Positions 18,941 through 25,346 of a stretch of DNA of 25,444 bases are shown here, piece by piece. The stretch's first letter is position 1, and every line of letters starts with the position of its first letter. The stretch is from the IMG/VR virus record IMGVR_UViG_3300047550_006186; one strand, written 5' to 3'. The notes under the pieces are model-generated. The model did no database searches. It was given only the letters and a program-made list of their open reading frames with translations, and was not told where the DNA came from. The DNA comes from a virus. Position numbers and translations under genes: made by a program.

Positions 18941-19010
18941 CAAGTAGATAACAATTTGAAGTTGCATGTAAATATTCCGGCAATGCTTGAGCATAAAGGA
19001 AAAGAGCAAC

Positions 19011-19451
19011 ATGCGACTTTGGGTGATATCATCATTGATATTTCTGTCTACTGCTGCACAGGCAGCAGAATTGGTCCACACTTTCAGCAGCCCTAGTTTT
19101 AGTGGCGTGGGCTATAGTAGCCATGTGCTGACTATTGAACAACTGCAAACACAAGCTCAACAAAAACAAAAAGACAAACTGGCACAAGAGCAAGCTGCTG
19201 CTGAACGAGCAAGATTGACCAATCCTATAAATCAATTTGTGGGAAATCTACAAAGTATTGTGTATCAGCAGTTGGCCAAAAGATTGAGTGAGGCCATTTT
19301 TGGCGAAAATCCCAGCAACAGTGGTAGCATCAGCTTGGGCGGCAACACAATTGCCTATGCAAGAATAGGCAATGACATAAATCTAACTGTAGTAGACCAA
19401 GCCGGTAGCACAACACAAGTTACCATTCCAGTGGGGAGTATAGCATTTTGA
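19011..19451 (+). CDS. csgF: Curli assembly component CsgF
   Basis: Signal peptide ...STAAQA|AE; HTFSSPSFSGVG (cf. FQFRNPNFGG); INQFVGNLQSIVYQQL (cf. LDNFTQAIQSQILGGL); C-terminus ...STTQVTIPVGSIAF (cf. ...TSTIQVSGLQNNSTDF). Confidence 0.8.
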   Translation: MRLWVISSLIFLSTAAQAAELVHTFSSPSFSGVGYSSHVLTIEQLQTQAQQKQKDKLAQEQAAAERARLTNPINQFVGNLQSIVYQQLAKRLSEAIFGENPSNSGSISLGGNTIAYARIGNDINLTVVDQAGSTTQVTIPVGSIAF

Positions 19452-20288
19452 ATGGCAACATATAGGCAAATAAACTGCATTTTTTTGATCTGTCTGCTGG
19501 CAGGCTGTGCAACGGTTGCCAGTGTAGCAGACAAAACTGGTGTAGATATTACGCAACCTCCACAAATTGCCATCAGCAGATTTCTGTCTTTGCCTGAAAA
19601 TCAACTATTGCCCCCCAAAGGTGGAGCAATCACTGTGGCAGTCTATAATTTCCAAGACAAAACAGGACAAAGAAAAGACACACCAGGTGTGGCCAGCTTC
19701 AGCAGTGCAGTCACTCAAGGTGCAGATGCCTATCTCATGCAAGCTTTGACAGAAGCAGGCAATAGAAAATGGTTTAGAGTAATTGAAAGAGTGGGTATCG
19801 AAAATTTGATCAAAGAACGTCAATTGATCAGACAAATGAGAGAACTCTATCAAGGTGCAAATGCACAACCAGTACCTCCTCTTTTGTTTGCAGGATTGCT
19901 CATGGAGGGCGGTATCATAGGATATGACAGCAACAGTCAAACTGGCGGTGTTGGTGCTCGTTTCCTGGGCATTGGTGGTCTCACACAATATCGTCAAGAT
20001 ACTGTGACAATCAATTTGCGAGCTGTAAGCACCAGCAGTGGTGAGGTATTGGTGAATGTGACGGTTACCAAAACTATCATGAGCTATCAAGATAGTGCAG
20101 GTGTATTGAGATTTGTGGATGCTGGTACCCAAGCATTGGAAGCAGAAGTGGGTGCCAGTATAAACGAAAGTAGGAATCAGGCCATTCAAATTGGTATTGA
20201 GGCTGCTGTGATTGAATTGATTAGAGAAGGTGAGCGCAAAGGACATTGGGATTTTGATACTAGTGCAAAGATTAAAGGAGCAAAATAA
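19452..20288 (+). CDS. csgG: Curli secretion channel lipoprotein CsgG
   Basis: Lipobox LLAGC; AVYNFQDKTGQ, FSSAVTQGADAYLMQAL, MEGGIIGYDSN.QTGGVGARFLGIG, INLRAV.TSSGEVL and HWDF are highly similar to E. coli CsgG. Confidence 0.92.
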   Translation: MATYRQINCIFLICLLAGCATVASVADKTGVDITQPPQIAISRFLSLPENQLLPPKGGAITVAVYNFQDKTGQRKDTPGVASFSSAVTQGADAYLMQALTEAGNRKWFRVIERVGIENLIKERQLIRQMRELYQGANAQPVPPLLFAGLLMEGGIIGYDSNSQTGGVGARFLGIGGLTQYRQDTVTINLRAVSTSSGEVLVNVTVTKTIMSYQDSAGVLRFVDAGTQALEAEVGASINESRNQAIQIGIEAAVIELIREGERKGHWDFDTSAKIKGAK

Positions 20289-20968
20289 TGAACAAGTTTT
20301 TGAGTATGGGTGTTCTTGTAAGTATCTGCATTGTTGCCAGTACAAGTTGGGCAAATGATGTATATTTGGATCAATTGGGCAACAATTCAACAACCACAAT
20401 TGAACAAGTGGGCAGTGCCAACAAGGTGGGCACCAGTGTGGATGCTGCCAGCAGCGTCTCAGGTAATAGTGCCACCATTAATGTCAAGCAAACTGGCACA
20501 AGCAATAGCCACATGTACACAATTGTAGGTGATACAAACATCTATAACAGCCAAGTAAATGGCAATAGCAACAGTGTGACCTACAAATGTGGTGGAATAG
20601 GAACAACAGCCAGCGGAAGTTGCAATGGATCTAATGTGACTGAAACTGTCACAGGTAATGCCAACACCATGATCACCACCACAATTGGTTCAGGCAATCG
20701 CAATAGTGTAACAGTTACTGGTAACACAAACAGTGTGACCACAACCATGGAAACCAGCAATGCCACTGGTAGCCTTGTTCTCAATGGGGACAATAATACA
20801 ACCAATCACACAATTACTGGTGTGGGTGGCACTGGACACGTTTTGGCCATGAACATAACTGGCAGCAGCAACAGCGTGTCAACTACACAATCAGGCAGCA
20901 ATACTACTACAGTAAATTTGAATATCAATGGAACCAGCAACACGTTTGTTGTGAGAACTGGCAACTGA
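20288..20968 (+). CDS. Curlin-repeat-like secreted protein (candidate nucleator/minor subunit)
   Basis: Signal peptide ...STSWA|ND; imperfect ~20-23-aa repeats of the type GN(S/A)xT(I/V)xVxQTGxSN and S(N/V)TxTV(T/N)GNTN; Gly/Asn/Ser/Thr-rich. The ATG overlaps the csgG stop (TAATG). Confidence 0.6.
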   Translation: MNKFLSMGVLVSICIVASTSWANDVYLDQLGNNSTTTIEQVGSANKVGTSVDAASSVSGNSATINVKQTGTSNSHMYTIVGDTNIYNSQVNGNSNSVTYKCGGIGTTASGSCNGSNVTETVTGNANTMITTTIGSGNRNSVTVTGNTNSVTTTMETSNATGSLVLNGDNNTTNHTITGVGGTGHVLAMNITGSSNSVSTTQSGSNTTTVNLNINGTSNTFVVRTGN

Positions 20969-23245: not shown

Positions 23246-25302
23246 AATTACGCAAAATCGTACTGAGTGTCAGTTGGTGTTTGGTGACACTAGCTGTATT
23301 GACAGCAATCAAAATCTACAATCCCAGTTTTGTGGAAAGCATCAAATTGAGATATTTTGACACGTTGATCATCAACAAAGATCCCACACAAAATAATTTA
23401 TGGGTGGTGAACATTGATGAACAATCCATTGATCAACATGGCCAATGGCCGTTTGCTAGGTCAGTCTATGCAGATTTGATTGAGCAACTGTACAATCGTA
23501 ATGCAGGATTGGTGGTTTTTGGTGTGTTGATGAGTGAGCCAGATCGACAAGGCATGGACCACAAACTGATCTCCACCTTGAAAGAATATCCCACAATTTT
23601 GACAAGTGTTCCTGGTAACACCAACAAGAATAGTGCAAGGAATCCAGGCGCTGTTGTAATAAACGATGACCACATTGATTTGATTGTCAGCTATCCTGGA
23701 TTGATTGCCAATATTTCGCTAATAGAAAACTCCGCAGCAGGAGTGGGTATAGTAAACCAAATGCCTGAATTGGATGGTGTAAATCGCAGAATACCTCTTG
23801 TGGTCAGCAGCAACGGCAAATTGTATCCGCATGTCAGTTTGGAAACATTGAGGATCCTAGCAGAGGACAGAGCCTTTCAAGTAAGATTGAATGAGCAAGG
23901 TATAGAAGCACTGAGAATTCCCAAATTTGGCGCTATTCAAACAGACAGTTTGGGAAGAATTTGGATTGACTGGAGTCAAAAATACAACGTTGCCAGTATG
24001 CAAGATCTACCTGAAGATTTTCAAGGTGCTGTGGTAATTGTGGGCACAAGTGCAGCTGGCATAGCCAATCCTGTGAGCACAAGCATGGGGGCTCAATTTC
24101 CACAAAATGTGCAAGCAAGTGTGATAGCCACCTTGATCAATCAAGTGAACATTCTACGTCCGGACTTTGCAGACAACCTGGAAATTATTGTTATGGTTGT
24201 GCTATCCGCGTTGTTGATTTTGTTGAGCAAAAGAATTTATGTGGGTATTGCTGCACTTGTGATTGTGGTAGCTGGAAGTATCATGGGTAGTATCTGGGCT
24301 TATCATGCTTGGGGAATTTTGTTGGATGTGACTTTTCCTTGTGCGACCATAATATTGGTCAGCTTGCATGCCTACGTTGTAAAATTCCTGAGTGAATTCT
24401 TCCAAAAGCAGCAAATCAAAAAGCAATTTGGCAGCTATGTGAGCCCTGTGATTGTGGAACGTTTGCAGAAAAATCCAGAACTCATTCGATTGGGTGGTGA
24501 AGAAAAAATTCTCACTGCTGTGATGACAGACATGAGAAACTTCACAGGATTGGGTGAGAAGTATGGAGCAGATGTGGAAGGCTTTACCAAAATCATGAAT
24601 GAATATATGACAGCTATTGCGCAACCGGTGTTTGCCAATGATGGTTGTTTGATCAAATTCATTGGTGACGCCAGTTTGCACATACACGGAGCACCTTTGG
24701 ATGATGATCGTCATGCTTATCATGCTGTAAAAACCACCATAGAAATGATTGAGGCTGTGGAACAGTTCAACCAAAAATTGGAAAAAGATGGCAAACCCAG
24801 AGTGGGCATGGGCGCAGGCGTGAACACAGGAAAAATACTTGTGGGCAACATCGGCAGTGAGGGCAAGATGGGTTATGATGTGCTGGGAGATCCGGTGAGT
24901 GTGGCTGCCAGATTGGAAGGGCAAACCAAAGGTTATGGTGTGTTGGTAATTATTGGACCAGATACTTACCAGGAGGTACGAGAAGATTTTCTATGTTTGG
25001 AATTGGATTGCATTGCGGTCAAAGGCAAGAATGTGGGATTGAATATCTATACACCTTTATTGAACAATCCTGCTGATAAACAGCCTGCTTACCAATTAGC
25101 TCAGCAACATCATCAACAGATGATTGCATCCTACAGAGCCCAAAATTTTGATCAGGCAATAGACATGTGCAAAGAACTCATGGGCCAATTTGATCAACAG
25201 ATGGATCATTATTATGAAATTTGGATTGCCCGTTGTTTACAAATGAAAGAATATAATCTCTCCAAGGATTGGGATGGAATTTATCACGCAACCAGCAAAT
25301 AA
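23242..25302 (+). CDS. CHASE2 sensor / class III adenylate-guanylate cyclase with C-terminal helical (TPR-like) tail
   Basis: CHASE2: VVNIDEQSIDQHGQWPFARSVYADLIEQL, plus three TM helices (~aa 325-400). Cyclase: TAVMTDMRNFTGL, KFIGDAS, GMGAGVNTGKILVGNIGSEGKMGYDVLGDPVSVAARLEG. ATG 23242 (after GAGGA) overlaps the preceding stop (ATGA). Confidence 0.9.
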   Translation: MKLRKIVLSVSWCLVTLAVLTAIKIYNPSFVESIKLRYFDTLIINKDPTQNNLWVVNIDEQSIDQHGQWPFARSVYADLIEQLYNRNAGLVVFGVLMSEPDRQGMDHKLISTLKEYPTILTSVPGNTNKNSARNPGAVVINDDHIDLIVSYPGLIANISLIENSAAGVGIVNQMPELDGVNRRIPLVVSSNGKLYPHVSLETLRILAEDRAFQVRLNEQGIEALRIPKFGAIQTDSLGRIWIDWSQKYNVASMQDLPEDFQGAVVIVGTSAAGIANPVSTSMGAQFPQNVQASVIATLINQVNILRPDFADNLEIIVMVVLSALLILLSKRIYVGIAALVIVVAGSIMGSIWAYHAWGILLDVTFPCATIILVSLHAYVVKFLSEFFQKQQIKKQFGSYVSPVIVERLQKNPELIRLGGEEKILTAVMTDMRNFTGLGEKYGADVEGFTKIMNEYMTAIAQPVFANDGCLIKFIGDASLHIHGAPLDDDRHAYHAVKTTIEMIEAVEQFNQKLEKDGKPRVGMGAGVNTGKILVGNIGSEGKMGYDVLGDPVSVAARLEGQTKGYGVLVIIGPDTYQEVREDFLCLELDCIAVKGKNVGLNIYTPLLNNPADKQPAYQLAQQHHQQMIASYRAQNFDQAIDMCKELMGQFDQQMDHYYEIWIARCLQMKEYNLSKDWDGIYHATSK

Positions 25303-25309
25303 TCAAGGG

Positions 25310-25346
25310 GTGCTGCTGGGGTCAGCCTTGGCAGCACTCTTTTTTT
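25310..25346 (+). terminator. Rho-independent terminator closing the curli-like operon
   Basis: GTGCTGC(TGGGGTCAGCCTTG)GCAGCAC followed by TCTTTTTTTCT. Confidence 0.6.

Follow-up and report, generated by a model that had tools for sequence, protein, structure and literature searches.

What does a curli-type gene cluster do when a periplasmic FecR-domain protein and a membrane-bound CHASE2 cyclase are encoded among its fibre genes? The question is raised by the IMG/VR virus record IMGVR_UViG_3300047550_006186, a stretch of 25,444 nucleotides (nt) that we refer to in full as ‘the window’; an original prediction had read six genes at its right-hand end as an operon for an amyloid fibre, the state of which might be sensed outside the cytoplasm and passed on as a cyclic-nucleotide signal. 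We find that the window is phage DNA and that the cluster is a further member of the published viral type VIII secretion system (T8SS) module, not a new type of system. Within it, the FecR protein ends in a curlin-like tail—the best sequence-level evidence we have that the sensor genes may be tied functionally to the fibre subunits. With moderate confidence, we favour a reading in which the module makes fibres bearing a lectin head, with the FecR tail reporting their secretion or assembly to the CHASE2 cyclase.

The six genes and their phage carrier

The six genes of the module are as follows:

19011-19451, plus strand: csgF-like gene; 146 amino acids, signal peptide (Pfam CsgF 6e-18, profile positions 8-132 of 132)
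19452-20288, plus strand: csgG-like gene; 278 amino acids, outer-membrane lipoprotein pore with lipobox LLAGC (Pfam CsgG 3e-52)
20288-20968, plus strand: curlin-repeat protein 1; 226 amino acids, signal peptide (Pfam Curlin_rpt 2e-5)
20973-21980, plus strand: FecR-domain protein; 335 amino acids, signal peptide (Pfam FecR 9e-10)
21977-23245, plus strand: PA14-headed curlin-like protein, ‘gene 5’; 422 amino acids (Pfam PA14 6e-16)
23242-25302, plus strand: CHASE2 class-III cyclase; 686 amino acids (Pfam CHASE2 1e-36, Guanylate_cyc 1e-15)

Six co-directional open reading frames (ORFs) in the predicted order are present, and their domain content is supported by Pfam, whose curated cut-offs are exceeded by the expected domains of five of the six genes; profile hidden Markov models bear out CsgF, CsgG, Curlin_rpt (in gene 3), FecR, PA14, CHASE2 and Guanylate_cyc, the assignment that falls below threshold being the Curlin_rpt of gene 5. 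The junctions given for csgF through to the cyclase are exact (TGAATG, TAATG, a 4-nt gap, ATGA, ATGA), and it is correct that csgD, csgE and csgC are absent and that an extracytoplasmic sensor and a cyclase are embedded in the cluster. The predicted extent of 18987-25346 does hold the six ORFs, with two starts revised: csgF most likely begins at ATG 19011, which is preceded by an AAGGA ribosome-binding site, rather than at the alternative TTG 18987, and the cyclase gene begins at ATG 23242, not 23203—both being starts also used by independent gene calls on other assemblies. Four-nucleotide overlaps are frequent across the whole window (e.g. 3407/3410, 10511/10514, 17142/17145, 17654/17657), thus tight packing is a genome-wide property and not special to the curli cluster. 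A promoter scan performed at chance (15 sites against 15.2 expected), so we claim no promoter; Rfam and tRNA scans of the window gave no matches.

The arrangement had been thought undescribed, which proved not to be the case. Searching with CsgG by tblastn finds Pelagibacter phage HTVC008M and Methylophilales phage Melnitz (44% identity), whose GenBank records (KC465899 and MZ577097, respectively) annotate CsgF, CsgG, curlin, FecR/hypothetical, curlin/hypothetical and adenylate/guanylate cyclase in the same order. A pelagimyophage ‘curli operon’ was reported by Zaragoza-Solas et al. 2020 (PMC7029224), the curli genes of Melnitz were discussed by Buchholz et al. 2022 (PMC9004378), and Wittmers et al. 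2022 (PMC9599517) explicitly described a viral T8SS module with FecR and an adenylate cyclase (AC), two components that, they state, do not belong to bacterial curli operons; the same paper documents ocean-wide abundance and metatranscriptomic expression, infers an alphaproteobacterial origin, and puts curli proteins at ~0.1% of assembled viral proteins in GOV2.0. The window has both the phage context and the order CsgF-CsgG-CsgA/B-FecR-(second CsgA/B)-AC of that viral module, as well as the parts by which curli (type VIII) secretion is recognised: a CsgG lipoprotein pore, CsgF and secreted curlin-repeat subunits (gene 5 at family level only). What we did not find in the published accounts that we read are the jumbo-like carrier, the CHASE2 domain and generic nature of the sensor cassette, the FecR tail, the variable PA14 head and the family of companion proteins described below; the terms CHASE2, PA14 and C-terminal are absent from the paper by Wittmers et al. 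(PMC9599517).

A scan of IMG/VR returned 79 viral contigs with CsgG relatives (46-82% identity; contigs of up to 357 kb), and tblastn and blastp with the six window proteins recovered the same order almost everywhere among viral loci. Linkage was counted over 54 non-redundant IMG/VR loci, scoring only those with enough downstream sequence: FecR follows csgG in 34 of 34 loci with at least 3 kb downstream, and the CHASE2 cyclase is found in 21 of the 22 with at least 9.5 kb, on the same strand in 19. The same order in 54 non-redundant loci puts linkage of the genes far beyond chance; the module is conserved as a block. Across the loci, GC content lies between 33.5% and 51.6%, and it is 43.1% for the window’s module against 44.1% for the window as a whole, which argues for long residence in diverse phages and not for recent transfer. 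PHROG families are matched by four of the six module proteins, the two curlins being the exceptions.

Contrary to the earlier assumption of a bacterial operon, the cluster belongs to a phage genome. Alongside it the window encodes pectate-lyase/tailspike-like, PurM, CTP synthase (PyrG), PurN, PTPS/QueD-like, TnpB, ClpX, ClpS-like, IF3 and Hsp20 proteins, a zeta-toxin-like kinase (minus strand), an AAA_28 kinase-like protein, a dUTPase and a DUF3307 protein. Window proteins are matched exactly on a 58-kb JGI contig (3300042987 Ga0451684_0000028), on which genes for a T4 rIIB-family protein and a DnaE-type polymerase follow the cyclase at a distance of ~6-8 kb, the rIIB being closest (41%) to those of jumbo phages XacN1 and PA5oct. 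A FecR homologue with 51% identity sits on a 310-kb scaffold that repeats both the six-gene set and the three convergent genes downstream of it, and has auxiliary genes typical of huge phages; among isolated phages, megablast with the entire window found no match. To judge from these genes, a larger, jumbo-like phage (~44% GC) is a more likely carrier than a pelagiphage. An ordinary chromosomal curli operon of a new regulatory type is, in our estimation, a very remote prospect: homologues of every part exist in bacteria, with alphaproteobacterial relatives for CsgG, yet the flanks are phage-like with rIIB downstream, the 79 relatives lie on viral contigs, and neither FecR nor a CHASE2 cyclase adjoins csgG in any of the four nearest bacterial loci that we recovered (Bradyrhizobium, an Acetobacteraceae metagenome-assembled genome (MAG) and two Balneolales MAGs; 43-51% identity)—a small sample, and a weak test of absence, though in line with Wittmers et al.

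Some further observations concern these genomes. For phage DNA, the interval 293-18312 of the window has an unusual wealth of host-like genes, including a dCMP deaminase ORF (8288-8731; JGI gene call), and further downstream on the same phage (locus L087, 12922-21561) are a DPBB_1 protein, a cREC_REC receiver-like protein, an arginase-family protein, a 700-amino-acid protein beside rIIB and the DnaE-type DNA polymerase III alpha subunit. In the Acetobacteraceae MAG, a class-III cyclase domain (L091, 14620-15057, minus strand) lies ~4 kb from csgG on the opposite strand (29% over 164 amino acids, E 1e-4), with no FecR match near it.

Working through the secretion proteins, CsgF, both curlins and the FecR protein each carry an N-terminal signal sequence. 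The csgF-like protein matches phrog_35372 at 1e-32, and phmmer with this sequence did not reach E. coli CsgF in the PDB. CsgG aligns end to end with its E. coli counterpart (PDB structures matched at 9e-52; confirmed by NCBIfam at 2e-55), with both the lipobox and the transmembrane-hairpin region conserved. The constriction loop is one residue longer than that of E. coli, with ASF replacing SNF; the Phe (or Leu) is kept, Asn is changed to Ser and the Tyr position is variable, features shared with the nearest alphaproteobacterial CsgG sequences. Curlin 1 is rich in Asn/Ser/Thr/Gly and scores 24.6 bits with Curlin_rpt, against a Pfam cut-off of 20.7.

Gene 5 encodes a PA14 domain (residues 22-157; nt ~22040-22447) and a repeat region (residues 199-421; nt ~22571-23239) that AlphaFold2 (AF2) models as a regular strand-turn-strand beta-solenoid, with a predicted local confidence (pLDDT) of 82. 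We assign it to the curlins because six of nine homologues from the loci match Curlin_rpt, because many database homologues combine PF07691 with PF07012, and because of the modelled solenoid. Foldseek returned mostly PA14 domains for this model, chiefly those of the Ca-dependent sugar-binding adhesins MpIBP, Flo1/Flo5 and Epa1; with PA14 matches dominating, the solenoid was not matched to CsgA structures. The pair D98-D99 is invariant in 37 homologues, and presumably corresponds to the sugar- and Ca-binding Asp-cis-Asp motif of PA14 lectins. Across phages the C-terminal repeats and a terminal CxxxxGCxxxTVRQ motif are kept and the N-terminal head varies: it is PA14 in the window, HTVC008M and loci L078 and L006-L009, of an unrelated kind and 480-852 amino acids long in other loci, and missing from Melnitz. 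A variable head on constant repeats is the pattern expected of a fibre subunit that displays an exchangeable binding domain, the sugar-binding PA14 head on one predicted subunit pointing to glycan-directed adhesion.

These subunits bear on the proposal that CsgG/CsgF act without any fibre, as a gated outer-membrane channel for the timing of lysis or the uptake of solutes (Buchholz 2022, Zaragoza-Solas 2020). Buchholz et al. did not see clumping of Melnitz-infected cells (PMC9004378), a CsgE gate is lacking, the constriction loop is unlike that of E. coli, and the companion proteins have a weak holin-like match, all of which would suit a channel of this kind. Saying this, two curlin-repeat proteins with signal peptides are conserved in the module, one of them a confidently predicted beta-solenoid with a lectin head; moreover, both earlier papers took the fibre genes to be missing, which is contradicted by the GenBank annotation and by Wittmers et al. 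We consider a pore alone improbable.

The FecR protein and its curlin-like tail

The FecR protein consists of a signal peptide, a FecR beta-domain (residues ~22-200), a disordered linker (~222-283) and a C-terminal unit (~290-335; nt ~21840-21977). Its AF2 model has a confident FecR domain, disorder across 222-283 and short strands at the C-terminus. When 34 homologues with 37-78% identity to the window protein are aligned, the FecR domain shows an invariant Cys156/Cys162 pair, the linker varies in both length and sequence, and the C-terminal block is once more conserved, with the consensus VTIxQxGDxAxxxVGxGGSNTIxIxQ.

This block is homologous to the terminus of the first curlin. Compared by hhalign with the C-terminal unit of the curlin-1 family, the tail gives a score of 35.9 (P 3.6e-6), whereas none of 100 column-shuffled controls exceeds a score of 16. 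Its profile-profile match to the C-terminus of the PA14-curlin is weaker (P about 1e-4), and those to single E. coli sequences are weak (CsgA, P 0.002; CsgB, P 0.06). Pfam gave no match for the C-terminal third on its own; the likeness is visible only when profile is compared with profile. All full-length viral FecR ORFs, those of HTVC008M and Melnitz included, end in a related ...ITxxQ(N/R/K) strand, as judged by eye, a strict regular expression having missed most variants. In the bacterial FecR proteins that partner CHASE2 cyclases, the FecR domain is recognisable (29-37% identity; E 5e-15 to 7e-10) and the tail is missing (hhalign P 0.2-0.6). The proposed coupling of fibre assembly to a cyclic nucleotide gains some support from this tail.

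The FecR label invites comparison with iron signalling, and Wittmers et al. 2022 read the module’s FecR as a ferric-citrate regulator (PMC9599517). We rejected a FecIRA-type role: the protein has a signal peptide and a FecR domain only, with neither an anti-sigma domain nor a transmembrane helix, and an extracytoplasmic function (ECF) sigma factor and a TonB-dependent receptor (FecI, FecA) were not found among the window ORFs tested. The name ‘iron regulator’ is therefore not supported for this protein, whose domain nonetheless shares its fold with PupR and BDI_1681 (6ovk and 4m0n in Foldseek); in NCBIfam it matches distant FecR-domain adhesin models only.

The cyclase and the proposed coupling

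The cyclase has an N-terminal transmembrane helix, a periplasmic CHASE2 domain (nt ~23305-24216), a cluster of transmembrane helices and a cytoplasmic cyclase domain (nt ~24514-25032), with hydrophobic segments at residues 5-23 and 310-383; it matches phrog_35576 over its full length at 2e-193. Comparison with solved cyclases locates the metal-binding Asp443 and Asp489 (in TDMRNF and IGDA), the adenine-specifying pair Lys485/Asp559 and the catalytic Arg570, all of which are present. Across 32 unique viral homologues there is no variation at Asp443, Asp489, Lys485 or Arg570, the second specificity residue being D/T/S. We predict from these residues an ATP-specific enzyme that makes cyclic AMP (cAMP) and is under purifying selection; the earlier assignment to class III stands, and ‘cAMP/cGMP-type’ narrows to cAMP. 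The transition-state Asn is replaced by Ser566 (nt 24937-24939) in the window cyclase, as it is by Ser in 12 of the 32 viral homologues; its conservation within a subclade makes it probable that the change is tolerated or adaptive and not a sign of decay.

We also considered a Pycsar-type cyclase serving defence or counter-defence through a cyclic nucleotide, for which PADLOC reports weak PycC matches (best 2e-10, 38 bits). We rejected a defence system: the PycC matches mirror the shared class-III fold, with Guanylate_cyc and phrog_35576 scoring far higher, the Lys/Asp pair indicates ATP, and there is no adjacent gene for a cyclic-nucleotide-binding effector. This reading is scarcely credible.

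FecR and CHASE2 cyclase together form a generic bacterial periplasmic sensor cassette. In the three plasmids inspected that encode full-length homologues of the cyclase (Paracoccus aminophilus pAMI5, the top match; Ensifer, the second; and Ruegeria, lower-ranked), a gene for a ‘FecR domain-containing protein’ adjoins the cyclase each time, and one for a TPR protein in two. CHASE2 is found in all Campylobacterota adenylate cyclases, most of which share a gene cluster with a FecR-domain protein, a TPR protein and a phosphodiesterase (PMC9239204). The S. meliloti pair comprises SMc02176, the CHASE2 cyclase CyaD1, and the FecR-domain protein SMc02177; CyaD1 without CHASE2 produces cAMP constitutively (PMC5498481). 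In a biofilm-regulating operon of Burkholderia, a LysM-FecR protein adjoins a CHASE2 histidine kinase (PMC5192318). The phage module therefore joins a FecR-CHASE2 cassette to genes for curli secretion and fibres.

The two halves could be independent cassettes placed side by side, the curli genes making fibres and FecR/CHASE2 sensing an unrelated periplasmic cue to reprogramme the host via cAMP. Such cassettes do work in bacteria without curli genes, and the cyclase is missing from some podovirus modules (Wittmers et al., PMC9599517) and from one of 22 loci here. We nevertheless judge independence unlikely: the FecR gene has a curlin gene on either side, shares an ATGA overlap with the one that follows and is present in 34 of 34 loci, and its product ends in a homologue of the curlin terminus that the bacterial FecR partners do not have.

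The reading that we favour would run as follows. On infection of a Gram-negative host, the CsgG pore and CsgF would be placed in the outer membrane; the two Sec-exported curlins would pass through the pore and polymerise into amyloid-like fibres, the Ca-dependent PA14 head on the second making the infected cell sticky by binding glycans. The phage FecR would have gained a curlin-like tail that binds or joins the curlin subunits or the fibre, such that its folded FecR domain could report the state of secretion or assembly to CHASE2; the cyclase would then change host cytoplasmic cAMP to match.

Several points weigh against this scheme. Clumping was not seen in the Melnitz infections, no cAMP receptor was found in the window, and the Ser at the transition-state position may lower cyclase activity. 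The Curlin_rpt match of gene 5 itself is sub-threshold (E 0.33) and the C-terminal part of the FecR model is of low confidence (pLDDT 55-62); the bacterial csgG sample, as noted, is small.

A more specific version, which we offer only tentatively and regard as doubtful, would make FecR a curlin-tailed tether across the pore, allowing the cyclase to read pore occupancy or fibre load into cAMP. The disulfide-bonded FecR domain would stay folded in the periplasm, too large for the CsgG channel; the disordered linker would thread the pore, with the curlin unit built into, or nucleating, the external fibre, and the retained domain would contact CHASE2. One lead comes from Foldseek, in which the first ~70 residues of the FecR domain resemble the N-terminal cell-surface anchoring domain of MpIBP (5ix9; E 0.017, TM 0.73, 30% identity), a likeness that is weak at the sequence level (E 1.2). 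If true, a tether would account both for fibre anchoring without CsgB and for gating without CsgE, and would amount to a phage-delivered sensor of amyloid assembly or adhesion.

The favoured coupling, if real in either form, would be without precedent in translating the secretion or assembly of an amyloid into cAMP signalling, and would give the CHASE2 domain a defined class of ligand. Phage curli modules are abundant in aquatic viromes, where the roles proposed are aggregation (‘sibling capture’), superinfection exclusion, solute uptake and lysis timing; the module now extends beyond pelagiphages into large, jumbo-like phages with a wide range of GC, and the generic cassette, FecR tail and PA14 head together make its function testable.

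Borders, companion genes and known systems

The remaining features of the window that bear on the module are:

6326-7519, minus strand: TnpB (IS605/OrfB-type), flanked by recurring end sequences
18346-18786, plus strand: DUF3307 membrane protein, directly upstream of csgF
18903-18940, no strand assigned: palindromic 38-nt copy of a TnpB element end sequence; left border of the module
25303-25444, minus strand: 3' part of a gene for a small transmembrane/coiled-coil protein (120 amino acids, one transmembrane helix); the gene leaves the window
25305-25342, plus strand: terminator-like hairpin, a 17-bp stem followed by a T-run (-25.8 kcal/mol)

At the right-hand end, the single terminator proposed for the operon does correspond to a strong hairpin and T-run; this overlaps the 3' end (last codons) of the conserved convergent ORF, and is not conserved in the relatives L006 and L092. 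At the left-hand end of the module, similarity to the near-identical contigs L003 and L004 (99.2%) starts only at 18941, directly after the palindrome. Repeats of the TnpB ends occur at 155-201, 6311-6365, 7561-7599, 12331-12369, 13476-13508, 13740-13777, 14836-14865, 14871-14925 and 18903-18940, with 6311-6365, 13740-13777 and 14871-14925 belonging to the same family as the palindrome; solo copies of both end sequences are spread over the intergenic regions of the window.

We note that these solo copies look like miniature derivatives of the element, and that the strain-to-strain breakpoint just upstream of csgF coincides with one palindromic copy. The segment directly upstream of the module is hypervariable among close relatives—L003 1-2900 has three unrelated genes in place of window 15697-18940, and L006 2646-9475 comprises ~6.8 kb with no window counterpart—around which the flanking Hsp20-dUTPase block and the module stay syntenic. 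On Paracoccus pAMI5, the FecR-CHASE2 cyclase pair is immediately followed by a DUF3307 gene as well (L095, 7153-7491); the gene is absent from the other viral loci, and its recurrence with module and plasmid may be coincidence.

The small transmembrane/coiled-coil proteins form a family (phrog_18771) of two paralogues that accompanies the module. On the window’s phage the 120- and 92-amino-acid paralogues flank a DUF4337 membrane protein, convergent and downstream of the cyclase (L087, 11562-12808, minus strand); both paralogues are likewise downstream, on the opposite strand and around the DUF4337 gene, in the window lineage and on the 310-kb scaffold, and both are directly upstream of csgF in HTVC008M and Melnitz. 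Of the 54 loci, 30 contain at least one member, and in 20 at least one precedes csgF on its strand by no more than 1.5 kb. On this distribution, the small companions probably belong to the module. Wittmers et al. placed one or two ‘histidine kinase’ genes before csgF in the viral T8SS (PMC9599517); by position, these are probably the phrog_18771 genes. Pfam gives no kinase match for the companion proteins, and only their first 21 residues are covered by the weak holin match. In the window, csgF is preceded by DUF3307 and another ORF, with no kinase gene.

Among known systems the closest is the viral T8SS of pelagiphages (HTVC008M, Melnitz and HTVC023P-type podoviruses; compared from the Zhao 2013 GenBank record, PMC7029224, PMC9599517 and PMC9004378), which has the same six genes in the same order on a single strand, without csgD, csgE or csgC, and whose proteins are 30-44% identical, the PA14 head being found in HTVC008M too. 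It differs in its carrier, that of the window being a phage of ~44% GC with IF3, ClpX, TnpB, DnaE and a jumbo-type rIIB and not a T4-like pelagimyophage, and in its companion genes, which lie upstream of csgF rather than downstream on the opposite strand. The csgBAC and csgDEFG operons of E. coli and Salmonella share the CsgG pore, CsgF and secreted curlin-repeat subunits; unlike these, the window has a single operon with no CsgD, CsgE or CsgC, a lectin-headed subunit, embedded FecR and cyclase genes and an altered constriction loop.

On the sensor side, bacterial (TPR)-FecR-CHASE2 cassettes likewise encode a secreted FecR-domain protein beside a CHASE2 class-III cyclase (FecR domains 29-37% identical; cyclases 25-30% over their full length); in contrast, their FecR has no curlin-like tail, TPR and phosphodiesterase genes are often included, and there are no curli genes. 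The Burkholderia BiofilmReg operon (response regulator, LysM-FecR, CHASE2 histidine kinase, DUF4136; PMC5192318) has in common a periplasmic FecR/CHASE2 sensor pair and a link to biofilm, but its output is a kinase and not a cyclase, and its FecR bears a LysM domain instead of a curlin tail. FecR/PupR anti-sigma regulators share the fold of the FecR domain; the module’s FecR differs from them in having no cytoplasmic anti-sigma domain or transmembrane helix, and no FecI or FecA gene accompanies it. Finally, the Marinomonas RTX adhesin MpIBP has both a PA14 Ca-dependent lectin domain and, in 5ix9, an anchoring domain resembled by the N-terminal half of the FecR domain, though it uses a type I secretion system.

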